Positions 17,401 through 37,403 of a DNA stretch of 64,000 nucleotides are shown here, piece after piece. Source of the DNA: Schmidtea polychroa (lineage: Eukaryota); NCBI GenBank assembly GCA_044892525.1, contig CM097887.1:88824397-88888396 (forward strand), written 5' to 3'. Each line of letters begins with the position of its first letter. Position 1 is the first letter of the stretch. The notes under the pieces were generated by a model, which did no database searches, had not been told where the DNA came from, and saw only the letters and a program-made list of their open reading frames with translations. The position numbers and the translations under genes are program-made.

Positions 17401-17801
17401 TTAGCTGTAAAGTAAGAAAGATAACGGTACATGACGAAAGGGATAAAGTTAAAGTGGTTCAGCTCTATTACATTGAATTACTTGAATAAAGACTTGTATA
17501 AAAACTTGTAAAAATCTGAGGATCTAAAGACTGAATTATACAGCGATAAAGTAAATGAAACTTTTCTAAGAGGATGGTAAAATAGGAAAATATTCAAGAG
17601 CCGGCTATCTAACAGCAAAAAAGGAAGGCACGGAGGTCCGCGGTCTGTATGATTTTTTACAAGAAGCCCCTATGGGAAAGATTATATTGTAAAATGAGTG
17701 AGGGATAATGTAATATTAAACAATTAATGTTGTTTTAATATTATGAAAATGTCGTAAAAATAGAATTTGAAAAACGTTTTGTCTTACAAGCTATCCGGGC
17801 A

Positions 17802-18510
17802 ATGGAAATCAACAAGATCATAATTGAAAATGTTGGAAAATTCGATGGCAAAAATACAGATGTGGAAGAATGGTTCGACAAACTCGAAATTACTTTGGAA
17901 GCCAAGAATGTGAAAAATGTCATGAACGTAATGCCATTTTTACTTGAAGGTCAATCTTATGCAGTTTTAAAACAGTTAAAGAAAAGCAGCACGACAATGG
18001 ATTTTTGTATGCTGAAGAAGGAATTATTGAAAACCTTCGGTATGAGCGAGCAAGAAGCTTTTACGAAACTTTTACAGAAAAAGTTATTAATGGGTGATAA
18101 CTTGGATGTCCATGTAAATGAATTAAGGTCACTGTTGGAATGTTCAGGTGATCTACTAATCCGATTTTTTGTAAATAGCTTACCAAGTGATTTGTCAAAT
18201 CAACTAAAGATGTCAACAGCGTCAACAATGAATGAGTTAGTCGCTCAAGCAAAGAAAATCGCAAGTCATCAAATTTATGACAATGAAACGGTTGCAGTAG
18301 TAGTACCAAGATCAGATAGTGGAAGACAAGCCAATCGAAAATGCTATATATGCAATAGTGCTAATCATGTGGTAAGATAGTGTCCAGAAAGACGCAATAT
18401 CAGATGTGCAAAATGCGGTATTATGGGACATATTTCAAGGTTTTACAAGTCGGGAAAAGATCATGGGGCTAGACACAATGTGGAGTCGGGTGTGGCCCCA
18501 AAAATTGTGA
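17802..18510 (+). pseudogene. gag: gag of small Gypsy (capsid plus two CCHC-like knuckles, nonsense codon at 18378)
   Basis: KFDGKNTDVEEWFDKLE capsid start; CYICNSANHVVR*C and CAKCGIMGHISR knuckles. G GGA AAA slippery heptamer at 18452-18458 shifts -1 into the protease frame. Confidence 0.75.
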
Positions 18511-18514
18511 ATAT

Positions 18515-21088
18515 GTGAGACTCCTAAAAGTAAATGGTGATGTAAAAGCATGTTTAGTTGATTCGGGCAGCACTACCACTATAGTAAAAGGAAATCCACG
18601 AAAATCTATGACTGCGGTAGCGATGCTTGATGGTTCAATCATATATGCTGAGCGAAGTAAAGTTGATATATGGGTTGGAGATAAGTTATTTAATATTGAT
18701 TGTTTAATACACCCGAAACTAGTATCCAATTATGATGTAATTTAATAAGTGAATGCTATTAATAGGTTTGGTGGAGTACGATTGAATAAAAAAGCCATAT
18801 TCGGTTGTGAAGAAGCATCTTGTCACGTAGCGTGCTCTAGTAGTGGTATGTCAGAAATATTGAAGGAAAATTTCTCTGCGAGATTTGAAAACGAGAAATG
18901 GATTGTCAAATGGGATTGGAAGTCAGAGCCGCCAAAATATCTACCTAATAGAAATTCAAACTTTTATGATAATTTTAGTAAGGATCAGGAGACAATGCGT
19001 ATATTGAATTCTTGGATATCTAACAGCTATCTAGTTGATTACGACGAGAAAACAATGGGCAAACCGATCGGATCAGTACCTATTTATGGTACAATTCAGT
19101 TAAATAGAGCGGAAGTGCGTCCAGTATTTGACTTTAGGGGTATCAATAAATATATTGATGTATATAGTGGAAATGTAGATATCTGTTCTGAAAAATTACG
19201 ATGATGGAGATGTTTAAGTAAAGAATTTGCAATGTTAGATTTATCTGATGCATATATGCAAATACACGTGGATAAAAGCATGTGGCGATATCAATCTTGT
19301 ATGGTTAATGGGAAGAAATATGCGCTTACGAGAATGGGATTTGGATTGAATATCGCACCAACGATAATGACAGAGATTGTGAATAAAGTATTGAACAACA
19401 ATGAATCAATCAAGAATAGTACAAGTTCATACATAGACGATATATTCGTAGATGAATCTAAAGTTAAAGCAAGTAAAGTAAGTGCAGAAATGCGTAAATT
19501 TGGTTTGATATGTAAAGAAGAAGAAAAGGTCAAGGATACTCTCAGTGTAAGAGTATTAGGTATTGATGTATTTCGAAAGAATAATGAACTGGTTTAGAAA
19601 CAATGGTTGCGGCCAGCTTGCTCATATATCAAGAGGCTATCCAGTGGAAATTGGGATGATTCAATAGAAAATCATATCGTTGACAAAGTAAAATGGTTAT
19701 TAGAAAAAGTGAATGAAAGAGATCCATCGTCAGGTATTTGGAGTGTTCCCAGCAATCAGACAGGCATAATTTGGTGCGATGCAAGTTCGATCGCCATTGG
19801 AATTGTATTAGAAATGGAAGGTTCAGTGGTTGAAGATGCGTGTTGGTTGCCGAAACCTGATGGTTCAAGACACATTAATTTGGTGGAAATAGAAGCGATT
19901 GTGAAGGGTATAAATTTATGTATTAAATGGAATCTAAAGTACATCAAAATTAAATCCGATAGTAAATCAGTTGTGTGTTGGGTTAACAGCATATTATCAA
20001 GCGACAGAAAAATACATACAAAAGCAAATTCAGAGTTGTTAATACGACGAAGGCTGGAGCTTTTAAAAGATCTAGCGATTGAGTATGAACTTAAAATGGA
20101 CATTGAGTTTGTATCTACAGAAAATAACAAGGCTGATGTATTAACGAGAGTACCAGCCAACTGGATGATTATTAAAAAAGAAGTCGCAGATCTAGGCAAT
20201 CAAAAAAGCTCGAAAGATGTGTTATTAGAGATTCACAAGACCTGCCATGTAAGGAAAAATCGTATGCGATTCTTAGTATCGGAAGCGGGGCTACTAAATG
20301 TGGATAATGAGATCTCAGAAATAATGGCAAGTTGTAATCAATGCCTATCAATTGACCCAGCGCCAGTAAAGTGGGAGAAAGGTGAACTAAGCTGTGATGA
20401 AAATTGGTGCCATTTAGCAATTGATGTAGCTAAATTTGCTAAAGATAAATATTTAACAATTATTGATTGTGGACCATCGAGATATGCAATTTGAAAGAAA
20501 ATTAAGAATGTAAATGTAGAAGAGATATGTAATGCTTTAAATGAAGTGATATATGAAAGAGGAGCTCAAAGTGAAATATTATTAGATAATTACTTATCTT
20601 TTAGATCTAGAAAATTTCAAGAATTAGCAGATAAATGGAATGTTGAGTTGGTATTTAGAACAGTGAACCGTCCAGGGGGAAACGGGATCATTGAACGCAG
20701 CCATCGGACAATCAAATCGCTAGCAGCTAGGTCCTCAGGAACAATCGCAGAAGCTGTGTACTGGTTCAACAATACGCCAAACAACAATAATATTTGTCCA
20801 TCTAGAGCCATATTTAGATATAATCCAAAGCTGAATCTGCCAAGCTACAATAAAAAAGAGATAATAATCGAAGCAAAATATTCTGCTGGTGACCCAGTAT
20901 GGATAAAACCGAATTTGAATCAAAAATGCACGGAAAGATGGAAAGATGGACATATCATTAAACCATTATCAAATACAAAATTTTTAGTCAGATGTAATGG
21001 ATACGATATGCTGCGACACGTGGGCGATATTAGAAAAAGAGTTGTTAAAGATTCAGATGAATCTGGTGGAGATGTAGGAATAATGTAA
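18515..21088 (+). pseudogene. pol: pol of small Gypsy (PR-RT-RH-IN), one frame broken by several stops
   Basis: ORF pieces 18515-18745, 18749-19204, 19232-19597, 19607-20494 and 20546-21088 are all in the same frame and carry the catalytic motifs in Gypsy order. Confidence 0.85.
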
Positions 21089-22573
21089 TATTAAACAATT
21101 AATGTTGTTTTAATATTATGAAAATGTCGTAAAAATAGAATTTGAAAAAGTTTTGTCTTACAGTGAAATTTGGAAAGGGATATTTATTTAAAATCGAACA
21201 TATATCTTCTAACAATAGTCCGTGAAACTGTAAGAATGTTAGCTAATTATAGTTCATTAGAGTGACCTCACTTCATACTAGCATTTAACCATTAGATACA
21301 GTATTAAAGTTGATAAAATAACCTAACATACAATGGTTAACCGTTTTTATTCTGGTTTATACTGAAATCACCACAAAGGATATGGTTAAAGTTTGCCTGT
21401 AACCCATCAAATTTATTATGATTTATTTTTTGTTATTGTAAAATTATAATTTTTTATTATTAGAAGTTTAAATCTTATCTAGTTTTTATTTTCAAAACTA
21501 AAAATCCCGAGAATACATGTTACTGATAATACTTGGCTTCAGTAAACCAATTAGAATTTAAATAATAAATTTTTAAATACAAACACAAATTACTAAAAAC
21601 AGTAATTTAATTTAGTGATAAATTCAAATAAAAGAATTTTACTAATTGTAATGAATTAAAAGCAAAATTTGTTTTAATAAATAAGAGGAAATAGAAAAAT
21701 TACAACTTTGAATTTTATTCGGTATTTCTTACTCATTAATCTAATTATAGTAATAGTAATTTTTAATTGCTTTAATTAGATTAATATCTAATTAGTTTAA
21801 ACAAATAATATATAATTAAATGTTTTAATTGCAAAGTTAGAAAATATGAAAAATTTTGCCAGACAAAATTTGAAATTTTTAATATAAATATTTTAAGTTT
21901 CTTGAAAAACTAAATTCCTTTTTTAATATGGAAACCTTTGAGAGGTTTGATAATTCAAAAGTAATAAAGTCCAATGGAGATCATTAAAATTTGTTCAACA
22001 ACACTGGTTCGCCTGAATATTAGGCAGTTCATATTAATTACTTTAATAAAATTATCAGTTCAAAAAATAAAAAATGATTTCAAATAAATCATATAGTTGT
22101 ATCGCTTGACAAATCCTATCTGATGTTTGATTTTACCCAAGAAACCCCTAACTTAATACTATTTAGTCATTTGGTATTATTTTCATCCATGATATGTAGT
22201 TATTAAGACCCACGCGAAGATTTAAAACGTCATGACCAGGTTACTTTTTAATTTGCCATACATTGTACAAATATAAAGACCTGAGTATTTTCAAAATTCT
22301 GAAATTATTTTTATACTTGAAAACGATAAAATTTAGATAAAAAGTTAATAAAATATCTGACAATCATATGGAAATAAAAGTATCTGTGATCTACAAAGAT
22401 CTAAATTGAACTTAGTGATGAAGATTCTTAATTGAGAATGAAAGTGTAATTGTTACATTATGACTGCTGTAATAAAAATAATTCAAAATATCATCTCGCA
22501 AATATAGTGTAATTTTCAAAAAATAATGGCCAATGCAAGAAAATGAACAACAAAAAATTTAACCTTAACATTT

Positions 22574-23576
22574 TGTTGAGGATGCCTAAATAATAATTCA
22601 TGAAGAAATAAATAAAATTACCTGGGGGAAGATCGCCATGACAAACGGGACGATCTATAGAGACTCAGAAAAGAAAACGGAAGTGAAAATAAATCAAAAA
22701 TGAGAAAGAGAAAGGAAATAAAAGTTATCAAACAGAAAAATAAAATCAAGGTCAGTACTAATTAATTAGTACAAAAAGGAAAAGGAATTTTGAAATCAGG
22801 GAAAAAGGAAAACAACAATATCCTTATCTCGACAGCTTGCTGATGATAATAGAATTGATGGGAGAAGGCGGCCAAACAAGAAAGGAAAAAGGGAAAAAAC
22901 AACCTGACAGCGGTCAGAGATAAAAATGGGATAGTCGGGGAAAGCAGGAGAAGGAAAGTGGGAAAACACTTGATTATCTGGAGTGCCACAAGAGAAGCGA
23001 ACTATATAAGGGAAAACTGGTGAACATGAAATTACAACAAAAGAGAGAGACAAGGTGACGCGAAATTGGAAACGCTCTGGAAGACGAATTGAGATACGAT
23101 TTGAGATACGATTTGAGAAAATAATTATTGAAGAAAATCAGACGTCGGACGAAACGTTGTTGGACAAACGATTGTCAAGATAATTGTAAAGGAAATAATA
23201 GAGGAAAATAATTGGAGAAAAGTTGAAGAGAAAAATTAGTTGAATAATAAAACGAAAAGAAGTTATTGATTATTTGAATAAAGTTTGAAAGAAAGTCAAA
23301 GAAAACAACCAGCTCAAAATCCCAGCTTAGAAACCAATCAGTAATTTGTGATCTTTTAATCCGGTGTTATACACAAGTGCTATTCCTCACCGAGTGTTGC
23401 AATAAGCACTGTATAGTCACCCAACAGAGTGTTGAATTTATCGTCAGTGTCAAGTGAAAGTTTATTTGTGATTATCAATAAAGATTTCTATTGTCAAGTG
23501 TTATTTGTGAATTATATAAAGACACGCTTGGAGTCAGAGTAACATTAAATTTTGTCACCAACTCAATAACCCAACA
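22574..23576 (+). repeat. 5' LTR of large Gypsy element
   Basis: Matches 36401-37403; one substitution seen by eye (G22912 vs T36739). TATA-like TATATAA at 23003-23009; AATAAA at 23477-23482. Confidence 0.95.
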
Positions 23577-23581
23577 TATTT

Positions 23582-23599
23582 TGGTGAGCCCGACGTGAT
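23582..23599 (+). promoter_or_regulatory. Primer binding site complementary to tRNA-Trp 3' end
   Basis: TGGTGAGCCCGACGTGAT, 17/18 identical to TGGTGACCCCGACGTGAT (complement of the vertebrate tRNA-Trp 3' end); 5 nt after the LTR. Confidence 0.85.
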
Positions 23600-23798
23600 C
23601 AAAAGTTGGTGAAGAGATTGTGAAAAAGAAAATTGGAAAAATAAAGTGTGTAAATTGAAATTATTAGAGTGATTTTGGAAAGGTAAATTGTTTATTGTAA
23701 TAATAATTTGAGATTTAGATTTTGTGAAATTTGAAAAGAAATAATTTATTAAAGTGAACCGATATTATTTACGAAGCCAGAGTAAAAAGGAAGCTACA

Positions 23799-26597
23799 AT
23801 GAGCAGTGAAGATTTACCAGTTTCAGTTATTAAAGAAAATAATGATTTTGCCAGTTGTCAAAGATTGCCAGTAGAGCAATATGGAGGAGATCCAATTATT
23901 TTTGTTGATTTTATGAGCGATTACTATATGTATGCAACGGCTTATGGATGGTCTCAAGCAATAATGATTCAAAGATTACCCTTATATCTTAAAGGAGCTG
24001 CTAGAGAGGTTTGGCAACAAATCGACAGGAAAACAATCGGCAATGATTGGGCCAAATTAAAAGATGCATTGGCTGCTAAACTTATTGGAGGAGATATAAA
24101 GAGGTTAATGCGTCAGAAATTTTATAATAGAGTTCAAAATCCAAATGAAACAGTGAGCGAATATGCATATCATTTATCGACCCTTGCCAGCAAATCCTTT
24201 GAAGAAGATTCGAAACAACCAGGATTAGCCCAACAGATGCAGGAACTGATTCAAGATCAATTTTTGTCCGGAGTAAATAAAGAAATAAAAACGGCATTAT
24301 GTTTTGTAGAGTATGACAATTTCGACGAACTAGTTAAAAAAGCAATGAAAATCGAATTGAATCTAAAGAGCTCTAAAAATAAATCTGAGGTATTTGCAAT
24401 AATTCCAGTACAAAGAGAGAGATCAGTAACCTCAACCCAAGACAATTGGGAATCAGGAAATAGATTTCAACGATTAAAGAGCCCATCACCAAAATGGAGA
24501 AACGATAATAATATGAACAGAGCAAGCCAAAATTCACCAGGCACTGAGAGAGCTCAAGTTATTCAGTGTGATATTTGTAAGAAAATTGGCCATTATACAA
24601 ATCAATGTTGGTTTAAAAATAATTCTGAAAGAGTACCCAGGAGATTGAGTCCAGATTGGCAAAGAGATAATGGAGGAACGAATTTTCGGAGAGCAATTCC
24701 TAATGTGAAGTCAAATTTTAATGAAGTACAATGTTATCGCTGTGGTAGAAAAGGACATGTTTCTAGAAATTGTTTTTCAAGATCAAGATCACCATCAATG
24801 TCACCATCACCACAAAGAGATAATGTGAATTTAAATGGACAAATTCAATGTCATTTATGCAGAAATTACGGACATATTGCAAGATCTTGTCCCAGGAATT
24901 CCGATAAATTTCAAAAACCGATTTTGAAACGAACAATTAGATTTCAGGATGAAAACCAATCAAAGAATAATGTTGCTTATGTTCAAAAAGATAAATTTAG
25001 AGAAAAAATTGAGAACGATGTCAAACAATTGAATCAAAAATTGAATAAATTGATGGCGAAATTTGAATCAGATGATGAAACAGATTCTCATATGATGACA
25101 AGACGAAAATTGAAGACGGATCAATCAAAACTTGATGATATTACAAGAAACAGAGTTAAAACGGATATGCAAAGTGAAAAGAGTACAATACTTATTGCTA
25201 AGGTCAGGAAATTAGTAACAGAACCTGATGCGAATTCTCAGAAATTGACAGAAGTATTGATGAAGCTAACGGAAATACCGTTGAGTTTAACCAAAATTAA
25301 AACTGTTATTAAACTTTGTACTGAATGTTTTGCAGCAAGTGTGGAAAAGCGAGATGTATTTGAAAAGTATATGAAAGAATTTGGCCAAACTTTACGAAAA
25401 TTCAAATGGTTAGACCCGATATTTATTAAAACAAATACATTAAACGACACCAAATCCGAGTATCAAGTTGAAGCATACGGAAAAATACGCGAGTTGAAAA
25501 GAGAAATAATGTACAAATGTGAAGTTTGGGCAGTAGAACTTGGATTTATGGGCCGAGTGTTGGAAGACGACGAATTTTTGATAGATTGTGGATTAATCCC
25601 CGGCGTTGAAAATGAGATACAAATAGTGAGCATGATTACCAATGAAAAACCAGTCAAATATGATGTCAATAAAATTAAATTTGAATTAAATGAAGCATTG
25701 ATCAAGGGAGATACAGGTGATATTATTGATAAATTGAATAATATTTTGAATTTAGAATTTGAAGTGGAAGATAAATTGAAAATTTTAGATTGTGTCAGAC
25801 CCTATGTAAATTATGATAATGAATATAGTGAAATGATAAAAAAGCTTATTCATAAATTTGGACAAGAATTTAGAGAAAAAGGAGTTTATAATGAGCCATT
25901 TGTGATAATGTTAAAAATAAATGACCAAGAAGTGGAATGTACCAGCGAGCATTGGTGTACGAAATTGAGTACAATACGACGGAGAGCAGCAGAAATTATG
26001 GGCAGTGATGGAATAATTGTATTGAAATACAAAGGTTTTGAGTTAGATGATGATGAGTACTTATTTGATTGTGGCTGTGTACCACGAAAATTTGATGAAA
26101 ATGGATCTTTGGCGAATCAGGAAACATTTATTAATGAGTTAGTTGCGATGAAACAATTTGAATTAAAGGAGGTAGAAGAAAGCTTTAAAATGGAATTACC
26201 AAACTGGAAAAATGAGATAATGAGTAATGATGATGAGATGCACGATGAACAAGAAATGAAAAGAGATGAAATAGAAAATGAAACTGTAGAGATTATTATT
26301 AAAAATGAGATGAAGACTGAAAAAGATGAAATAGAAAATGAAGCGGAACAGATTATTGTTGAAAATGAAATGAGAACTGAAGTTCAAAATGAGGCATATA
26401 TGACCAAAATGACGATTGATAATGATATTAAAGAAAAACAATGCAGAAATTTGTATGAAATAAGATGTAAAATAATACAGAAATTTCAAGAGGAAAAAGA
26501 TCAGAAAGACTCAAAGGAAACTGAGAAAATTGTACGTGCTCTAGTAAACGAATTAATAGAGAGAATTAATAGAGAGAATAGAGAGAATGCAAGTTGA
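23799..26597 (+). CDS. gag: Gag (capsid plus three CCHC zinc knuckles) with a long C-terminal extension holding two ubiquitin-like domains
   Basis: First ATG at 23799. Capsid motifs (LPLYLKGAAREVW, RVQNPNETVSEY); knuckles CDICKKIGHYTNQC, CYRCGRKGHVSRNC, CHLCRNYGHIARSC; Ubl-like segments at about 25419-25628 and 25899-26150. Confidence 0.85.
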   Translation: MSSEDLPVSVIKENNDFASCQRLPVEQYGGDPIIFVDFMSDYYMYATAYGWSQAIMIQRLPLYLKGAAREVWQQIDRKTIGNDWAKLKDALAAKLIGGDIKRLMRQKFYNRVQNPNETVSEYAYHLSTLASKSFEEDSKQPGLAQQMQELIQDQFLSGVNKEIKTALCFVEYDNFDELVKKAMKIELNLKSSKNKSEVFAIIPVQRERSVTSTQDNWESGNRFQRLKSPSPKWRNDNNMNRASQNSPGTERAQVIQCDICKKIGHYTNQCWFKNNSERVPRRLSPDWQRDNGGTNFRRAIPNVKSNFNEVQCYRCGRKGHVSRNCFSRSRSPSMSPSPQRDNVNLNGQIQCHLCRNYGHIARSCPRNSDKFQKPILKRTIRFQDENQSKNNVAYVQKDKFREKIENDVKQLNQKLNKLMAKFESDDETDSHMMTRRKLKTDQSKLDDITRNRVKTDMQSEKSTILIAKVRKLVTEPDANSQKLTEVLMKLTEIPLSLTKIKTVIKLCTECFAASVEKRDVFEKYMKEFGQTLRKFKWLDPIFIKTNTLNDTKSEYQVEAYGKIRELKREIMYKCEVWAVELGFMGRVLEDDEFLIDCGLIPGVENEIQIVSMITNEKPVKYDVNKIKFELNEALIKGDTGDIIDKLNNILNLEFEVEDKLKILDCVRPYVNYDNEYSEMIKKLIHKFGQEFREKGVYNEPFVIMLKINDQEVECTSEHWCTKLSTIRRRAAEIMGSDGIIVLKYKGFELDDDEYLFDCGCVPRKFDENGSLANQETFINELVAMKQFELKEVEESFKMELPNWKNEIMSNDDEMHDEQEMKRDEIENETVEIIIKNEMKTEKDEIENEAEQIIVENEMRTEVQNEAYMTKMTIDNDIKEKQCRNLYEIRCKIIQKFQEEKDQKDSKETEKIVRALVNELIERINRENRENAS

Positions 26598-29025
26598 GAA
26601 ATATGTGAGGAAAATTGCAAAGAAAATTAAAAAGAGATTTTGTGTAGTGTTAAAACAAGCAAAAGAAAGTATGGAATTTTGCGATGATAATGTGATAACT
26701 GAGATGAGGACAAGGAAAATAGATAGAGATATGGTATTAACAATTATGAGTTATATTTTGTTAGAAATCGGAACCTATGATTGCTCAGAAATGGAAAAAC
26801 ATGAGGAAATAATTAAAATGGCGAGTAAAGTTTTACATAAACATGTTGGCAAATGGATAAAAGAGAATGGAGGTTGGGAAAAGCTGATTAAACAAAAAAT
26901 AAAACCAGTTGTGGAATTGAGAGAAAATTATGAAGGGGTCTTGAAACGAAACACCATGAAATTTCCATTTTTAATGTTTATGATTATGATACTATGTGCA
27001 ATTATAACTCAAACGACGTCTTTAATCGCTTACGACTGTTCTCAAACAAAAATGGGAAAGGTATATTCGATGGTAGATATGACAGAATGTCCAGATGCAC
27101 ATCCACTGAGTCTAACAGTGGAAAAGGATGTAAAATACTATGTATATCAAGAGTCTGGATTTAGACATGCCACGGTAAGAGAGTGTATTGTGAAGAGAAC
27201 AAGTTTTGTATTCTATTGTGGCAAATGGAGTCACACATCATTAATTAAAATGTATGCAATACCAAGGCCAGTTGATGTAAATCCAGAAAATTGCATGGCT
27301 GCATTCCAGACCGGAGAATTGAAAATAAGTCCCGAAATTAAATTGAAGGCTAAATTAAATCATGCAATACGAGAAACGATTATTGAAAAAGGGGTGATAA
27401 AGGCCAATGGTGATTGTGAAGGCGAACCATATAAGATGAATGGGCAAATTATTGACAAAGTTGTTGTGATGGAGGAATATTTAACAGAATTGAGAGAATT
27501 TAAAGGAGCTTTTGACGATGATACAGGCAAATTACAAACCCATCCATTTTGTAATATGAAACAGACCAGTTGTCAAACAGGAGAATCGATTTTGGTATAT
27601 GAAGTAAAGAAAAATTTGTGTAACTTGATACATTTGAAATCAATGAGTTTCAGTGAAATGAGTGGCGAACAATTGAGAAATAGACCGGAAAGTCTGAATG
27701 TGGAAGCAAAGCCGGATATGACAGTTAAAATTACGCGATTGAGAAAGAGAAAAACTCCAGTAGTTCTGATGTCAACTTTATTGGACGATGGGATGAGATT
27801 CATACGAAAACGAGTAGTGGATAAGTGCGGCCAAACGGTGTATGAGACGAATTATAAAGGGATTTATGTGTCCAAGAAAAGAGTCGAGGAAGCTCAAATT
27901 AAAATACATAGTACAGATATTAAATTGACAAATTATTTCAATAACAAAATAGATTATCTATTCCACTACAGCCAAAGCATTGTGGAAAATATTTATCGAG
28001 AAATGATATTAAACGATTGTAAATTAAACAAAGAAATATTACGAAATAGAATAGCGATGGCGGTCACAAATCCGAATTTAGTAGCACCTATGTTAATATC
28101 GGAAAACGGTGTATTTGCAAGGATATTTGGTGAAGCGTTGTATAGCTACAAATGCAATGAAATTTCCGTACAAATTACAAAACACGAACAATGCACAAAT
28201 GAATTACAAGTGAGTGTCAATGGTAAACTCAGATTTATGGAACCAATAACTCGGATATTGTTAGAGGAAGACGTAAAACCAAAGGTTTTAAAATGCAACA
28301 GATTACTCGCACCATTATATTGATTAACGTCAGATTCATGGATATCGTTACCAGATCACAAAGGAGTAAAAACTCCAGAAAAGCTAGAATTAACAAAGCT
28401 TGAGTATTTAATAAATTTCACATCATTGGATAAATTAGCACAAACCGGATTGTATTCTCAAGAAGATGTTGAGGAAGCTAGAATGAATTTGTTATTTCCA
28501 TCGAAAAAGGAACGAGTAATAACTGAAATGATTGATACTATACTACCAGGAGGTGAAGGAAAAGTAAACTATGATTATCTATTAACACCAGATCATTATA
28601 AAAAGGCAACGTATAATACGATGAAAAAGATATGGGGAAAATTTATGTTTTTAGGACAAGCGTGTGCGGGATTGATTGGAATTTATGTTATGATAGTGAT
28701 GACAAAGGTAATAATATCTCAAATATTAACTACACACCAATTATATGTTATATCTGGTTGGTCATGGAAATTGATTATTGGATGCATACCGTTCTTGGCC
28801 AGATTTCTGATTACCAAGCATCAATACAAAGAAATGGGGAAAGTAAAATCACGACTAACTAAAAGAAATATTGATTCAAGTTCGAGCAATGGAAGTGGAT
28901 ATGGGGATGATGATAATGATAAACTAAGAGTACCCCCTATGTATTATTATAAAAATAATAAAACAAAAATAAATGATATAAAGGAAAAATCTAAATCTAT
29001 GAGTTTATTACATACAGTACCATAG
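26587..29025 (+). CDS. env: ORF2: N-terminal Bcl-2-like domain, then a signal sequence and chuvirus-like class III fusion glycoprotein; one in-frame TGA at 28321-28323
   Basis: BH2-like WIKENGGWEKL; hydrophobic MKFPFLMFMIMILCAIITQTTS; LIAYDC..YSMVD..ECP, YCGKWSH, CNRLLAPLY, LAQTGLYS, and C-terminal membrane region WGKFMFLGQACAGLIG...GWSWKLI. The frame stays open after the TGA. Confidence 0.8.
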
Positions 29026-29180
29026 GCAAGTGGAACAGACACTTTCAGTCGATTATGTATTCCAAAAACCTTTATTCCAACAGCACCAATATATCCAGTG
29101 GAAAAACTAAAGGAAATGAGGCCAATTGAGAATATTGAATTAACAAATGAGCAAATTATACCGACAAGTGCAGAAATTGA

Positions 29181-29760
29181 AAGGAGAAATATGCTGGGAT
29201 TACCAGGAAATTATGCGCTAATGACAGTCGGAAACAGAGCAGACAACCAAGAATATGGGTACAAGTAAATAAACATAGAGTTGAAGCATTATTAGACTCA
29301 GGTTCGAGTAATACGATATTATCAGACGAAGTGTTGAATTCAGATGAGAAAGCACAAATGAGAAGTACAGAAGAAGTGGTACGATCAATGACAAAATCCA
29401 AACTAAATATTATTGGGCAAATTAGAGTCAAGTTCAATATTGGAAATCAGGAAATTGCTCATGATGTTCTAATAATTCAAAATTGTCCAGTGGAATGCTT
29501 AGTGGGTATGGATGTTTTAGCACAGCTAGAAGGAGTTTGTCTTGATTTGAAAACGGGAAATTTGATTATGGGAGAAACGGGGAAAGCCATTCATGAAACA
29601 GGCGACGTGTTTCTAAACCAAACATTAAGAGTTCCACCTCAAAGTGAAGTTATTTGTTATGTGAATACAATGGGAGTTCCAGATGATGAATTTATATTTC
29701 AACCAAGTGAAACATTAATCAAAAAGTATGATATCCCCATGTACGACGAACTAGTAAGTC
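29181..29760 (+). CDS. pro: Retropepsin-type aspartic protease region (no ATG upstream of the active site)
   Basis: Frame opens at 29181; PRIWVQVNKHRVEALLDSGSSNTILS and CLVGMDVL motifs. The reading frame shifts to the pol frame near 29760. Confidence 0.85.
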
Positions 29761-32718
29761 CAAGACCAATTAATTCCTGTTTATATTACCAACAATAATG
29801 ATAAAGAAATAGCATTAAGACCAAAAACGAAATTGGGAAAGTTGACAAAAATCTTAAAAATGGACAATAAAAGATTACCAAAAAATATAAAAATATACAA
29901 AGAACCTCAAGTAAACAGTAAAGATTTGACCCAAGAGAAAATACAAAAATTTATGAAATTATTGAAAAAATATCAAGACGTCTTTGCAAAACATGAATAT
30001 GATCTAGGAGTTACTCATGTAATTGAGCACGAAATTCCATTAATGGATGAAACTCTAATCAAACTACGACCATACAGAATTCCTTATGCACATCAAGAGG
30101 AAAGTGATAGACAAATAAAGGCGATGAAGGATTTCAATATCATCAGAGACAGTTTTTCACCATTTTCTTCATCTATTGTTGTTGTTAAGAAAAAAGACGG
30201 TGAAATAAGATTTTGTATCGATTATCGAAAATTGAACCAAGTTACAAGAAAGGATACATATCCAATCCCAGTTCCTCAGGAAATGTTCGACAAAATGGGA
30301 GAAGCTCAATATTTTACTGTTATTGATTTAAATAAAGGGTATAATCAATTCAAAGTTAAAGAATCAGATAAAGGAAAAACAGCATTCTCAGATGGAAAAG
30401 GTTTGTATGAATTTAATGTTTTACCATTTGGTTTGAAAGGTGCACCAGCAACATTTCAAAGAGGAATGAATTTTGTACTGAGAGATATCCCACATGCTTT
30501 AGTGTACATAGATGATATTATAATATTTTCAAGTGATTTTGAGGAGCATATGAGAGATGTGGAGACAGTATTTAAACGGCTTAGAGAAGCAAGTCTCAAA
30601 ATCAAACCATCAAAATGTGAATGGGGTAAGTCAGAGGTAGTATATGTTGGACATATTATCTCACGGAGGGGTTTACAACCAAATCCAGATAATGTTAAGA
30701 AAATCCAAGAATATCCTATTCCAAAAAATGTTGATGACGTCAGACAGTTTCTCGGGTTAGCAAGTTATTATAGAAAATTTATTAGAAACTTTGCACATAT
30801 TGCTCAACCATTAACAATGTTATTAAAGAAAACTCTTAAATTTACGTGGAATAAAGCTCAACAAGATGCTTTCGAAATTCTCAAACAAAAACTTATAATT
30901 AATCCAATATTGCGATGCCCAGATTTTACAAAGATGTTCATATTAATGACAGATGCAAGTGGTTTTGCATTAGGGGCAGTGTTGGGGCAAAAGGTAGAAG
31001 GAGAAAAAGATCATGTCATTGCATATGCTAGCCGATCACTGAAGCCCCATGAGAAAAATTATTCAACAATTGAAAAAGAAACTTTAGCTTTGGTATATGG
31101 GATAACAACATTTCGACAATATCTAGTGGGTCCGAAATTTATTGTTTATACAGATCATAATCCGTTACAATGGTTAATGAAACATCGAGATGCAGCAAGC
31201 AAATTGATAAGGTGGTCTATAGCCTTACAAGAATATGATTTTGAAATAAAATACAGAACAGGAAAATCAAACGCTAACGCAGATGCATTGTCAAGGATCT
31301 CAAATGAGGAAATTAGTGTTGACCAGGAAGAAATAAGTTTGAGAGATACAGTATTCGCAGTAATCAAAGCAGTAAACAATATGTCAGAGCTGCAACGAGA
31401 TCAGGAAATGGATGATGAACTAAAACAAATAATCAAACATACAGTGATAATGAAAAAGGACAGTGAATTAAAACAATTAATTGAGGAAAAGCATAAATAT
31501 GTAATCCACAAAGGTATATTAAAGTATATTAAAGGTGATGAATTATTAATAGCTGTCCCAACTAAGCATCGAAATACGTTATTGTTACAATATCATGATG
31601 GAGCATTGGGTGGACATTTATCAGCAAGAAAAACAATGTCACGATTAAAACTAAAGTATTTTTGGAATACAATGGACCAACATGTAAAGTATTGGTGTAA
31701 TACGTGCAAAATTTGTCTAACTCGAAAGAATACAGGAAAGAAAATAAAAGTCCCACTAAAACCAATGCCAATACCAGCCGCGCCAATGGAATTTTCAGCA
31801 ATGGATATTATCGGGCCCTTACCCGAAACTACAAATGGAAATAAATATATTATAGTATTTTGTGATTATTTAACAAAATGGCCAGAGGCGTACGCAATAC
31901 CAAATCAAAAAGCGGAAACAGTTGCTCAAATATTTGTCGAAAAGATTATATTCAGATATGGTGCTCCAAAGAAATTGTTAACAGATCAAGGAACAAATTT
32001 TCAAAGTGATTTATTTAAATCCATTACCGAATTATTTGGTATTTATAAATTAAATACATCACCATATCACCCGCAAACAGACAGGCTAGTAGAAAGATTT
32101 AATGGTACTTTAATCAATATGATCTCATCGTATGTAAATCGGAAACAAAAAGATTGGGACTTATTTATCAAACCATGTCTGTTTGCTTATCGAAATGCAG
32201 TTAACGAGAGTACGGGTGAAACACCTTTTTATTTAATGTATTTGAGACGAAACAATATGCCAATTGACCTGAAATTTCAACCCCCAACGTCTCAATACAT
32301 GGACGTTCCAAATTATAAAGTAATAATGCAGGAACGATTACAATCTGCATGGACTCGTGCGGGGTTAAAAATTAAGTATCGTCAAGAACAATATAAAGAA
32401 AACTACGACAAAAAGGCGCATGAGCACGGAATAAAAATCGGAGATTCGGTATATTTAAACAGGCCGGAGCCAGTAAAGGGCCTATCAATAAAATTACAAA
32501 GACCATTCAAGGGTCCATACACAGTATGTGATGTTACAGCAACTAATTTGAAGTTACGTCCAATGAATAACAAAAGAGCAGAAACAATTATAGTTCATGC
32601 TAATCGATGTAAGAAAGTATCCGAAATAGAGTATCAATTACGATCAAAACAAAAGAAACTTAATGATGAAAAAATTATTCAAAAAAAATTTCAAAAAAAC
32701 CCTACGCCATTGGGATAT
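29761..32718 (+). CDS. pol: Pol: reverse transcriptase, RNase H, integrase
   Basis: RFCIDYRKLN, LPFGLKGAPATFQR, YIDD (30505-30516), TDASG, YSTIEKE, TDHNPL, HDGALGGH..CNTC, MDIIGP, TDQG, VERFN, GPY motif. The frame continues into the next feature. Confidence 0.95.
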
Positions 32719-33900
32719 ATGAACAGAGTTTTATTTATAACTACAGTCTTAATAAATGTCATAGCAAATGCAAGTGGAATAACAATGAATCTACCATATG
32801 CAGTAGAAAAAGTACCCTTATTGGATAAAATTTATATATATTCAACATTTACTAGTATTGTGTGGACATATCACTGTGAAATATCAGAACAAATAGAAGT
32901 TAGTAATTTATTGAACCCTTTCGAACCATTTGTTACGTTGAATTATGAGAAAAGCATATATGTAGCTCGTCGATTGACAGCAAATTACAAATATCCTTGG
33001 ACCATTAAACAATATACGCATCAAACAAATACTACTCAAAATATTTATAACCTTATACAAATTAACATTTGGACAAATGAATGGAGAAATTTAGCTGAAA
33101 TTGAACCGATGATAAATGAAATTCACGTATATTGAAAAGCGGAAGAGCAACAGAAAGTCAGAATTGTTTTTCAAAACATTACGATTGAAACATTAAATAA
33201 AAGAAAATCTTTTGTTAAATACAAAAATTTACAAGAAAATCTCACTTACAGTCTTTCAATACATTATTACGAGAAACTCATTCATGACAATGGGACGTAT
33301 ATGAATAATCAATGGATAGAAGTTCAGAGTCAATATGAAGCAGTACACTTGGTTAACGAAACTAATCGAGTTCAAATAAAAATTGAGAACAATGAAATAA
33401 TTGTGTTACGCCAACCAGGCCTCAGACAAAGGGTAAATATTTTTGTAAATAATAAAATTCAGGTGGTGTTAGACGAATACCAACAAAGAGCAAAATTGAG
33501 TACCTTGAACTCAGTATCTAATCCGAAACCAAGAAATTTCGTGATCAAAATTCAATATTGCAAGCGAAAAGCAAACTCAGATCAATGGCAAGTCACTTTC
33601 ATTGAAAATAGACATATTCATCTTCCTCATACTCAACCCATTGGAGAAATAATAAGTGATCATAATCTAACATTAACCGTAAAACCCTCATGGTCAAAAA
33701 ACGAAAGCTTTTCACTAAACTGTAAAGAAAAATCATCTCATAACAATTGTGTCGAATTGTTATTCATATGTATCATTGTGGCAATACCAAGCGGTATCCT
33801 ACTCATCTACCTTGTTCTAATCTTGAGAAGTAATGACAATGACAATTCTATCTGCGACTATCAATATTCTGAGTCGCAGCAGTTAGAGACATGGGTGTAG
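32719..33900 (+). CDS. Predicted type I membrane glycoprotein, in frame with integrase; in-frame TGA at 33133-33135
   Basis: Signal-like MNRVLFITTVLINVIANA; at least 7 N-x-S/T sequons; FN3-like stretch IHVY*K...KYKNLQENLTYSLSI; TM LLFICIIVAIPSGILLIYLVLIL; short tail. The frame is open on both sides of the TGA. Confidence 0.65.
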
Positions 33901-34068
33901 TAAGATATGATTTCATTGCATGCTATTGATATCGTAAAGTATTTCTTTCTTTCATACCTTTTATAATTACATAAAAATGACTAATAGTGATCTTGTATTG
34001 TGATTATTCGTGATCTAAAATTAAATTATCATTCCTGTAATTTGATTGGTTAAACGATTGCACTACTG

Positions 34069-35574
34069 ATGGGAGAGTTGGGATATAAGAGTATGGTTGT
34101 TAAAAAGAAGAAAACGAAGAAAAACAAAGAATATCAAATGGAGAAAATCAGCAGACCAGCGAAAATATATTCACAGTATCTCAGAGAAAAAAGAAGCCGA
34201 ATAGAGAAGACATATATAATCGAAGAAAATCTGAGAATCCCAAATTGGGCAAGAACAGGCAATGAGAAAATGAGGATATGTCTAATGGAGATCGAATGGA
34301 GATCAAGAATGAAAATAGCCGAATTATTAGTGAGGAAAAGTGATGAGAATTGGGAGATCCACGTATTTAAAGGAATAGTGGAAATCATTAACAATGAAGG
34401 AACCATAACCGGAACAATGCCAAACAATTCATCATGGAAAATTGATAAAGAAACATGGCATAAACATATGCGAGCGGCGAATGGAACCGCGTGGTTAGTA
34501 TTAGAATGCCGCAGTAAAATGCCCACAAGTAACGCGGTAGAAAGAATCATCTCGATGGAAGAAGAAAATACCTTGCTCCCGATTACTGAAGAAATGTTGA
34601 AACACCGAAAGTCATTCCTGAGAAAATATTTAACCACTGAAGAAATCCAAAAAAATATAATATTCATGGATGCCGAATATGGAGTAAGTGAGGACAATAG
34701 AATGATCCCACTAGCGGTATGCCTCATCGAATATACCGGGAAAATAATCTATAATGCTTTGATAACTCCGAGAGAAAAAATAAAAAACTATGTTACACAG
34801 GTTCACGGCATTACTGAGAAAATGTCTAGGAACCAAGAAGACCAATATGAGAGCCAAAGGAAAGTTCAGGAACTAACAGCACGAAAAATATTGGTAGGAC
34901 ATGATCTACAAAATGAATTAAGGTATAGTGGAGTTAACCCAAATGATTTATGGGAAATTCGGGATCTAGCAGCAGCCCAAGCTCTAACGAAAAGGAAAAT
35001 CACAAAGAATGGGCAATGGTACAAATTGTCGATAATTGCTCAAGAAATATGCCAAATATCAATGCAAAAGGGAACGCACTCGGCAAGAGAAGATACGGAT
35101 GCAGTGAGACGAGTTTATCTGGCATTGGAAAGCGATTGGGAAGATGATATAAAAGTGCCAACACGGATATCTCACTCCCTACAAGAGTATAGAACTCGCC
35201 AACTAATGATGAATCAAAAAAGGGAATATAGTAAACTCAAAATCCCGAAAAAACCACAAGAGGAAAAAGCTGTGGAAATGCAAGAGATGGAAATAAATCT
35301 TCATTCCATCGAATCAATGAAAACCATCAAGAGATATAAAGTAACGATAACAATGGAAGAGGAATTAAAAATGGCGGGGAAAATGGAGCTTCGTATAAAG
35401 AGAATGGCAAAACGAAGACTCAAAGATATGGAAACTCAAACGGTAACTACGGAAACTTCGGTGGGAAATACAATTATCATCAACGGAGAAGAATGGAAGC
35501 TCAAAAAAATCTTAGCCACTTATCAAAGAGAAGATGAAAAGATAAAAATTACAAAGTTACCCGACAGAAGATGA
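34069..35574 (+). CDS. DEDDh 3'-5' exonuclease (REX4/ISG20-like) with an unknown N-terminal domain
   Basis: Exo I IFMDAEY (D at 34669), VTQVHGIT, Exo II ILVGHDLQNEL, IRDLA, Exo III QKGTHSAREDTDAVRRVY; Lys-rich N-terminus KKKKTKKNK. Intact 501-codon ORF. Confidence 0.85.
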   Translation: MGELGYKSMVVKKKKTKKNKEYQMEKISRPAKIYSQYLREKRSRIEKTYIIEENLRIPNWARTGNEKMRICLMEIEWRSRMKIAELLVRKSDENWEIHVFKGIVEIINNEGTITGTMPNNSSWKIDKETWHKHMRAANGTAWLVLECRSKMPTSNAVERIISMEEENTLLPITEEMLKHRKSFLRKYLTTEEIQKNIIFMDAEYGVSEDNRMIPLAVCLIEYTGKIIYNALITPREKIKNYVTQVHGITEKMSRNQEDQYESQRKVQELTARKILVGHDLQNELRYSGVNPNDLWEIRDLAAAQALTKRKITKNGQWYKLSIIAQEICQISMQKGTHSAREDTDAVRRVYLALESDWEDDIKVPTRISHSLQEYRTRQLMMNQKREYSKLKIPKKPQEEKAVEMQEMEINLHSIESMKTIKRYKVTITMEEELKMAGKMELRIKRMAKRRLKDMETQTVTTETSVGNTIIINGEEWKLKKILATYQREDEKIKITKLPDRR

Positions 35575-36386
35575 ATAATTGTAATAAATAAATAAAATTT
35601 ATAATTCGTAATTACTTTATTTTTTTTGTACCATAAAAATCTTTTATCAAATAAATAATAGAATAATAAAATAGCAAAGGCAAAAAAAAAAAAATTAATT
35701 AAATCATAAATATAAGTTGAAAATTTAATAATATAATATAGTAGAGTGTAATAAAAATTTCAATACTAATACAATTGTAGTAAGAACCCTACGGGAGCTA
35801 CTCAAATAAATAAAAATGAATAAATAAATATATATAATTCGGAATTAATAAAAAGGCCTTGAAGTTTCCAGATCACGAACTTCGGGATCTGAAGACTTCA
35901 TGGCAAAATTACCTAGCCGCCTGCAGCATGGCGTAACCAGCGTGCAAGGTAATTTGGAAAAGACAAGATAAATAATAAACCCTATATAGAGAGGAAGAGG
36001 CATTATTACATAATTATTATTTCAATTAATTATTATTATTGTCATTATTGATTAATTATTATTGTTATCANNNNNNNNNNNNNNNNNNNNNNNNNNNNNN
36101 NNNNNNNNNNNNNNNNNNNNNNNNNNNNNNNNNNNNNNNNNNNNNNNNNNNNNNNNNNNNNNNNNNNNNNNNNNNNNNNNNNNNNNNNNNNNNNNNNNNN
36201 NNNNNNNNNNNNATAGAGGATATTGATATGTATTAAAGTAACAGGGGGATTAATGTAATGCGCAATAAAATCAAACAACTATGGGAAGGGATAATTATTC
36301 TATTTTGGGGATTTTAAAATGAAAGAGGTAGCTAACAAAATAAATAGATTTCAAATCTTAATTTATTTCGAGGACGAAATTTTTTT

Positions 36387-36398
36387 AAAGGGGGGAGA
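36387..36398 (+). promoter_or_regulatory. Polypurine tract
   Basis: AAAGGGGGGAGA, 2 nt before the 3' LTR. Confidence 0.85.
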
Positions 36399-36400
36399 TA

Positions 36401-37403
36401 TGTTGAGGATGCCTAAATAATAATTCATGAAGAAATAAATAAAATTACCTGGGGGAAGATCGCCATGACAAACGGGACGATCTATAGAGACTCAGAAAAG
36501 AAAACGGAAGTGAAAATAAATCAAAAATGAGAAAGAGAAAGGAAATAAAAGTTATCAAACAGAAAAATAAAATCAAGGTCAGTACTAATTAATTAGTACA
36601 AAAAGGAAAAGGAATTTTGAAATCAGGGAAAAAGGAAAACAACAATATCCTTATCTCGACAGCTTGCTGATGATAATAGAATTGATGGGAGAAGGCGGCC
36701 AAACAAGAAAGGAAAAAGGGAAAAAACAACCTGACAGCTGTCAGAGATAAAAATGGGATAGTCGGGGAAAGCAGGAGAAGGAAAGTGGGAAAACACTTGA
36801 TTATCTGGAGTGCCACAAGAGAAGCGAACTATATAAGGGAAAACTGGTGAACATGAAATTACAACAAAAGAGAGAGACAAGGTGACGCGAAATTGGAAAC
36901 GCTCTGGAAGACGAATTGAGATACGATTTGAGATACGATTTGAGAAAATAATTATTGAAGAAAATCAGACGTCGGACGAAACGTTGTTGGACAAACGATT
37001 GTCAAGATAATTGTAAAGGAAATAATAGAGGAAAATAATTGGAGAAAAGTTGAAGAGAAAAATTAGTTGAATAATAAAACGAAAAGAAGTTATTGATTAT
37101 TTGAATAAAGTTTGAAAGAAAGTCAAAGAAAACAACCAGCTCAAAATCCCAGCTTAGAAACCAATCAGTAATTTGTGATCTTTTAATCCGGTGTTATACA
37201 CAAGTGCTATTCCTCACCGAGTGTTGCAATAAGCACTGTATAGTCACCCAACAGAGTGTTGAATTTATCGTCAGTGTCAAGTGAAAGTTTATTTGTGATT
37301 ATCAATAAAGATTTCTATTGTCAAGTGTTATTTGTGAATTATATAAAGACACGCTTGGAGTCAGAGTAACATTAAATTTTGTCACCAACTCAATAACCCA
37401 ACA
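36401..37403 (+). repeat. 3' LTR of large Gypsy element
   Basis: Copy of 22574-23576, followed by the ATTT TSD. Confidence 0.95.

Follow-up and report, generated by a model that had tools for sequence, protein, structure and literature searches.

Gypsy elements with an env are regarded as having a single surface protein. An LTR element of the planarian Schmidtea polychroa raises the question of what a second one is doing behind the integrase. Its pol frame (29758-33135) stays open past the GPY module and into a hydrophobic stretch that starts at 32719, and the membrane protein that follows, here called GP2, is the last module of a Gag-Ubl-Bcl2-Env-Pol polyprotein. The element measures 14,830 bp (14.8 kb) and occupies 22574-37403 of the window, the stretch of 64,000 nucleotides that was analysed. 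Its features are collected in Table 1.

Table 1. Features of the element in the window, with the basis of each assignment.
Feature	Position	Strand	Basis or remark
5' LTR	22574..23576	+	1003 bp, TG...CA; 4-bp target-site duplication ATTT just before
Gag with CCHC zinc knuckles and weak ubiquitin-like domain	23745..26597	+	PF03732 2e-8, PF00098 9e-8, PF00240 5e-4 (below cut-off)
Bcl-2-like segment, first internal signal, fusion glycoprotein and TM	26560..29025	+	PF00452 1e-3 (below cut-off)
First internal signal sequence	~26957	+	within 26560..29025
Env TM	~28640-28720	+	within 26560..29025
Protease, RT, RNase H, integrase	29181..32718	+	Pfam; frame breaks before and after protease in window copy
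GPY module of integrase	32512-32520	+	
Y-x-L-R-S-K motif	32632-32649	+	end of integrase
GP2 second internal signal sequence (predicted)	32719..32775	+	hydropathy; in frame with integrase; hydrophobic segment in each of the four families, starting with M/I/I/T
GP2 domain 1, FN3-like by motif	32803..33081	+	hhalign vs host FN3 score 16.2 (0/60 shuffles reach); pLDDT <50, poorly modelled
GP2 domain 2, predicted FN3/Ig-like sandwich	33082..33360	+	hhalign score 17.6 (1/60 shuffles reach); contains stop 33133-33135
GP2 domain 3, predicted Ig-like sandwich	33361..33630	+	pLDDT ~70-89; best Z 9.1, rmsd 2.4, 77 aa
GP2 Ser/Thr/Asn-rich stalk	33631..33756	+	secondary structure: none predicted
GP2 transmembrane helix, 23 aa (aa 347-369)	33757..33825	+	hydropathy peak 2.91; helix 342-371 in model
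GP2 ETWV and stop, class I PDZ-binding motif, polyprotein end	33886..33900	+	tail comparison among copies
Separate ORF with DEDD exonuclease domain	34054..35574	+	PF00929 3e-5; downstream of GP2
3' LTR	36401..37403	+	polypurine tract before, ATTT after

The element is a Burro-like (GAG-ENV-POL, gB-type) gypsy element. Paired LTRs with a target-site duplication and the order PR-RT-RH-IN with a GPY/F module place it in Ty3/gypsy (Metaviridae), and a gB/mononegavirus-type env sits between gag and pol. The Env fusogen is class III (gB/chuvirus-type) and Monjiviricetes-type by Pfam (PF24664, 4e-54 and 7e-28). Pfam domains follow the order Gag with zinc knuckles, ubiquitin-like, Bcl-2-like, Env, protease, RT, RNase H, integrase, GP2 region, and exonuclease ORF. 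A single gag-env-pol frame with ubiquitin-like and BCL2-like segments is present in sister copies (e.g. L031), the ubiquitin and Bcl-2 Pfam scores lying below cut-off. Burro in the strict sense (giant, >25 kb, with BIR/MATH/ankyrin) was ruled out, as the element has 14,830 bp and none of these domains occurs in the ORFs of the window.

Burro/GYPSM1 are giant gypsy-like LTR elements of planarians that encode one polyprotein, with a mononegavirus-like env in frame between gag and pol (PMC6431247). The window element shares with them the Gag zinc knuckles, the ubiquitin-like and BCL2-like segments, and an env followed by PR-RT-RH-IN (PMC6431247), but it is 14.8 kb long, its frame spans 3.3-3.4k aa, ankyrin/BIR/MATH are missing, and a DEDD exonuclease ORF is present. 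Knock-down of smedwi-2 by RNAi is reported to derepress BURRO1 (PMC8532177). A Burro/GYPSM1-like relative of 4,773-4,812 aa with ankyrin, BIR, and TRAF/MATH cargo also exists in the S. polychroa genome. The HSV/gB-type GAG-ENV-POL errantiviruses of Platyhelminthes have, in the available part of their description, the same gene order and a gB-type env (Chary and Hayashi, PMC13524379). Among them, Smed_errantivirus_1 and _2 are 14.8 kb long, and the env rows given in that part resemble the window's by eye. Behind the integrase only chromodomains are treated in this portion of the paper, and the words 'fibronectin', 'accessory', 'attachment', and 'polyprotein' have no occurrence in the main text as far as it was available (PMC13524379). 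The accessible part of the Burro/GYPSM1 account likewise makes no mention of a membrane protein or PDZ motif behind the integrase (PMC6431247). The element class and env position are already published; a membrane protein behind the integrase, with its fold and its PDZ motif, was not found in the published literature searched and is apparently new.

The window copy is broken though young by its LTRs, which show one mismatch in 1003 bp. Stops stand at 28321 (28321-28323, in Env), 29023, and 33133, and the frame is also interrupted near 26560-26597, 29181-29268, and 29758-29798, that of Gag close to its 3' end. These roughly six internal frame lesions are above the expectation for post-insertion decay given such LTRs and may reflect the copying of an already broken template, LTR conversion, or an assembly error. 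Another gypsy-like remnant lies at ~17700-21150, with RNase H/integrase-like frames at 19598-21088 and terminal repeats at 17701 and 21076. Its integrase frame ends without a membrane module.

Other copies in the same genome show the frame intact. A DNA search returned 46 matches (40 scored of 387 candidates) and a protein search 107 (105 scored of 1,347 candidates). The window's family, A, has three sister families, B, C, and D, and GP2 lies in frame behind the integrase in all of them. The frame runs open from Gag through GP2, reaching 3,437 aa in family B (7 rows) and 3,334-3,361 aa in family C, and in copy L003 the integrase and GP2 share an open frame of 1,503 aa. The stop at codon 33133 occurs in 2 of 30 alignment rows, those of the window copy and the decayed L027. 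Two single copies (L033, L056) have internal deletions from the protease to the integrase C-terminus and still hold Env and GP2 in one frame, open over 2,557 aa in L033. The DEDD exonuclease ORF occurs in families A, B, and D and is absent from 12 examined family C stretches; the available part of one source already describes DEDDy exonuclease ORFs in LTR elements (PMC5408684). In all four families the integrase closes on Y-x-L-R-S-(K/Q), a motif that also opens the Gag frame (start 23745). We take it to resemble the nucleosome-binding motif of foamy virus Gag.

Read with X at its single stop (33133-33135), GP2 is 393 aa long. The preliminary description had reported an in-frame signal-like peptide, an ectodomain, a TM, and a short tail behind the GPY module; frame and hydropathy confirm this arrangement, which is common to the four families. 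The signal has its Kyte-Doolittle peak (19-aa window) of 1.81 at aa 4-22, and the cytoplasmic tail of 24 aa ends in ETWV, a motif which had been overlooked. All seven sequons that had been named are present (aa 104, 153, 174, 191, 213, 316, and 328), with an extra NAS at aa 17 inside the signal, and only the positions aa 104 and aa 191 recur in all four families. By hydropathy and conservation, GP2 is predicted to be a type I membrane glycoprotein with a signal, lumenal sequons, one TM, and a short tail. The region has no assigned Pfam family, only TM-type or weak Pfam matches, and the ectodomain is nearly without conserved cysteines.

GP2 is under purifying selection. Among natural copies within families, its dN/dS is 0.22-0.29 in B (4 pairs), 0.12-0.14 in C (2 pairs), and 0.16 in D (1 pair), and neutral simulation with the observed transition bias gives a pN/pS of 0.73 (0.49-1.13). 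Between families dN/dS is 0.20-0.35 in 4 of 6 pairs, the other pairs being saturated, and it reaches 0.47-0.59 between two young subfamilies of family A. The integrase has values of 0.06-0.16, and in the B1-B2 pair Env stands at 0.06 against 0.195 for GP2. GP2 is therefore a selected protein, one that is changing faster than Env and Pol. Identity between the four families is 34-50% for GP2 and 76-77% for the integrase, and in the same copies 36-45% for the GP2 ectodomain versus 69-76% for that of Env, a faster divergence as expected for a host-facing protein. Domain 3 changes fastest and is the most variable, with 22-30% identity in 7 of 9 between-family pairs. The earlier proposal of a second membrane glycoprotein, unrelated to the upstream fusogen, is therefore upheld in its conservation among copies and its purifying selection. 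Within family A, near-identical ectodomains are followed by one of two versions of stalk, TM, and tail, which are 59% identical to each other and end in ETWV or ETFV (L012, L017 vs. L003, L013-L018), pointing to recombination at the stalk.

What the ectodomain looks like was approached by structure prediction. A first model of full-length family A protein had a pLDDT of 40 and gave no significant structural match. A model of the ectodomain, built on 15 aligned sequences from the four families with family C rather than the window's family in the lead, reached a mean pLDDT of 58, with domain 3 at ~70-89, domain 2 at ~50-70, and domain 1 below 50. Foldseek with this family C-led model returned 149 PDB matches at E <=0.001 in which FN3 arrays dominate, led by the CD45 ectodomain (7e-7), fibronectin FN10-12 (2e-6), and the adhesin SiiE (4e-6), with cytokine receptors, contactins, and interferon receptors also present; whole-ectodomain TM-scores are low, at 0.2-0.3. 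VIA-align matched domain 3 to an Ig-like domain (Z 9.1, next best 8.6) and domain 2 to sDscam FNIII3 (Z 6.4, rmsd 2.8, 74 aa). Alignment with hhalign against 28 host FN3 domains is weak (probability 3-5%); in domains 1 and 2 it covers only the L-x5-Y region, an FN3 hallmark, and domain 3 has no match. No Pfam fn3 match was obtained for 17 members at E up to 5. With moderate confidence, the ectodomain is thus modelled as three tandem Ig/FN3-like sandwiches on a stalk, without a specific donor, and the model leaves FN3 and other Ig-like topologies undistinguished for domains 2 and 3. The preliminary description had suggested one FN3-like segment around the interrupted codon; an FN3/Ig-like fold is indeed predicted there, but as one of three domains. 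Such a tandem β-sandwich ectodomain with a stalk and a single TM would resemble animal FN3-array receptors (CD45/RPTPs, cytokine receptors, contactins, Dscam), from which GP2 differs in having no Pfam fn3 match and no phosphatase or other cytoplasmic domain.

No source of this protein emerged from the searches. The GP2 profile, compared with 30 of the 90 host fn3 loci, gave a best E of 0.038 and no donor. In a set of 5.8 billion proteins, none of 998 candidates was retained with one natural copy as query, none of 4,517 with alignment A2 among longer proteins, and none of 2,540 with the GP2 ectodomain alignment. Negative results also came from metagenome contigs (none of 240 pattern matches retained), viral contigs (none of 98), and a PDB sequence search with GP2 (no matches). 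Two septin matches of the GP2 profile in the PDB (E 0.0045 and 0.39) were rejected as a local chance match inside the GTPase fold.

The conserved part of the tail is its end. The tail set holds 50 true GP2 rows from 48 distinct copies, two loci being counted twice and 10 spurious microsatellite or other-frame rows having been dropped. ETWV, ETFV, or ETRL followed by a stop (E-T-x-V/L) ends 43 of the 48 tails; two end in ETWA and three are broken. The chance of an S/T-x-V/L/I end is ~0.035 per tail. ETRL, the end of family C, is also the motif of an attenuated rabies G. Outside the motif the tail shows no conservation between families, and each family writes the motif with different synonymous codons; its retention under these circumstances argues for constraint on the peptide. 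S/T-x-hydrophobic-COOH is given as the class I PDZ motif in the accessible part of the source (PMC4810129), a definition that the end of the GP2 tail meets, making it a candidate PDZ ligand.

A distant giant family carries a similar ending. It has BIR, TRAF/MATH, and ankyrin cargo, an RT ~46% identical, and frames of 4,773-4,812 aa. Its polyprotein closes on a signal-like stretch, a Cys-rich repeat-like ectodomain, a TM, and ATLV (L071:4400-7456; L072:3322-4347), and this ectodomain gives no match to the GP2 profile. The slot and the PDZ-type tail are conserved between the GP2 families and the giant family, and the ectodomain has been exchanged. The giant family further has a separate downstream ORF of 341 aa with a signal and a TM.

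Surface glycoproteins with a terminal PDZ motif are known from HTLV-1 Env and rabies virus G, as described in the available parts of two sources (PMC4810129, PMC3395148); the class I motif of HTLV-1 Env is there reported to bind DLG1 at virological synapses (PMC4810129). In both viruses the motif is on the fusogen, whereas the element bears it on a second protein without sequence relation to either. The pairing of a class III fusogen with a separate surface glycoprotein of Ig-like fold would also resemble two-part entry systems. These include herpesvirus gB with gD/gH-gL/gC and paramyxovirus F with H/HN/G. The element differs from them in that a single polyprotein yields Env and GP2 together with Gag and Pol. 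The viral fold matches include alphaherpesvirus gC models (E 3e-5), but this match is to a generic tandem sandwich, with a TM-score of 0.29, and gives no sign of descent from gC.

We tentatively read GP2 as a junction-anchored adhesion or attachment partner of the fusogen, which would favour transfer to neighbouring cells. The observed basis of this reading is the position, the conservation, the topology pattern, and the E-T-x-V/L motif. GP2 would be excised as a type I membrane protein, its tail would dock on PDZ scaffolds at cell contacts, polarised membrane, or junctions, and its predicted sandwich ectodomain may bind a surface molecule of the neighbouring cell, such that binding would focus budding and fusion at cell-cell contacts. 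The top fold matches, FN3/Ig arrays of surface and adhesion proteins, speak for attachment, but an Ig/FN3 fold would equally fit a decoy or signalling mimic. Also against it are the dN/dS of 0.47-0.59 between the family A subfamilies and a moderate-confidence fold that comes from family C. Co-folding of the Env and GP2 ectodomains scored 0.00, in a run without alignments and with Env monomeric, a result that counts neither for nor against the reading.

The main rival, which we hold to be somewhat unlikely, is that GP2 is a receptor mimic or decoy that would damp host signalling or defence at the surface of the cell that makes it; the PDZ motif would keep it in junctional signalling complexes, and it would have no direct role in entry. 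CD45 and the cytokine and interferon receptors among the fold matches agree with this, as does the fast divergence of GP2, but the matches single out no receptor class. The other cargo of the polyprotein also points to host modulation: Bcl-2-like and ubiquitin-like segments here, which would supply anti-apoptotic and ubiquitin-pathway functions (cf. PMC6431247), and BIR, TRAF, and ankyrin in the giant family. On the other side, the tail is short and has no recognisable signalling domain, and no host donor was found among the 30 of 90 fn3 loci compared. Cytokine receptors carry conserved cysteines, of which the GP2 ectodomain is nearly free.

A non-autonomous derivative bears on the choice between attachment and mimicry. 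It numbers at least 40 copies (of 219 candidates, 40 were scored; L035-L039 and L115-L126, e.g. L039:3031-5922, minus strand), in which Gag-Ubl-Bcl2 and the Env signal peptide continue in frame into GP2 domains 2-3, TM, and tail, with Env and Pol deleted. Retention of this part of GP2 without Env or Pol may count against attachment and for a mimic. The GP2 part is open over at least 270 aa in 5 of 10 examined copies, three of which reach the motif, and its pN/pS is 0.47-0.58, with 15 of 200 neutral simulations reaching <=0.52. DNA identity to the window's family is 64-77% in the GP2 ectodomain and 85-91% in the TM and tail, a gap which suggests a mosaic.

The same derivative copies could be interfering elements, if GP2 were to block superinfection by occupying or masking the receptor for the Env of related elements. 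The single frame, which forces co-expression with Env, and the family-specific ectodomains would suit such a role. We nevertheless consider it improbable, as a link of GP2 to Env or its receptor is hypothetical and a conserved PDZ anchor would be unneeded. Superinfection exclusion is, moreover, usually a by-product of Env itself.

Two further readings concern how GP2 is made. The preliminary description had proposed looking for a spliced subgenomic mRNA starting near 32719, by which GP2 would be expressed as a separate gene in the canonical env position, its fusion to the frame being incidental. Besides that position, the Met at the start of the signal is in favour, being present in 21 of 45 junction rows, all of family A. 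However, the other 24 rows have Ile (22, families B and C) or Thr (2, family D). The junction K-N-P-x-P-(L/V)-(G/S)-Y before the signal and the reading frame are kept across families, with no stop between integrase and GP2 even in families whose synonymous sites are saturated, and 32400-32760 holds only two AG sites with 10 of 17 pyrimidines. Since the families keep the frame fusion but not the Met, GP2 forms the polyprotein's last part, behind an internal signal, rather than a separate env-like gene, and an mRNA of its own is very unlikely. Least probable of all is that GP2 stays fused to the integrase and tethers it or a Pol precursor to the membrane for packaging or targeting, for which the strict in-frame fusion and conserved junction could be cited, since the segment has the anatomy of a signal sequence with small residues after the hydrophobic core, a selected ectodomain of 300 aa and a second TM would be needless, and the integrase must reach chromatin.

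Taken as the last module of the polyprotein, GP2 fits the hydropathy of a natural copy (L031), which alternates signal (950), TM (1519), signal (2875), and TM (3230), with a fifth, weaker hydrophobic segment at 867 in the Bcl-2-like domain. From this alternation, Gag and PR-RT-RH-IN are expected to be cytosolic and both ectodomains, of Env and GP2, lumenal. Signal peptidase would free the GP2 ectodomain, as in viral polyproteins, and the element's protease may trim the integrase at the conserved junction; GP2 would be made one-to-one with Env. As the Env tail is buried inside the polyprotein, no encoded C-terminus other than that of GP2 is free, and GP2 would provide the PDZ anchor which in HTLV-1 sits on Env itself. 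Four membrane crossings by one polyprotein are, to our knowledge, a layout of RNA viruses rather than retroelements. The element shows it in a retroelement.

Cell attachment by gB-type elements is not addressed in the available parts of the literature consulted. If the attachment reading is extended to the whole group, planarian Burro-like elements may be endogenous viruses that enter cells by means of two glycoproteins, both cut from a single Gag-Env-Pol-GP2 polyprotein. The class III fusogen would act with an exchangeable subunit resembling an adhesion receptor, the PDZ tail of which would build a virological synapse at cell junctions, and the element would move between somatic and stem cells; we regard this as a possible but doubtful extension. 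GP2 in any case offers a tangible starting point for asking whether these very abundant elements pass from cell to cell, and by what route, in a host animal that is rich in stem cells and in which RNAi works.
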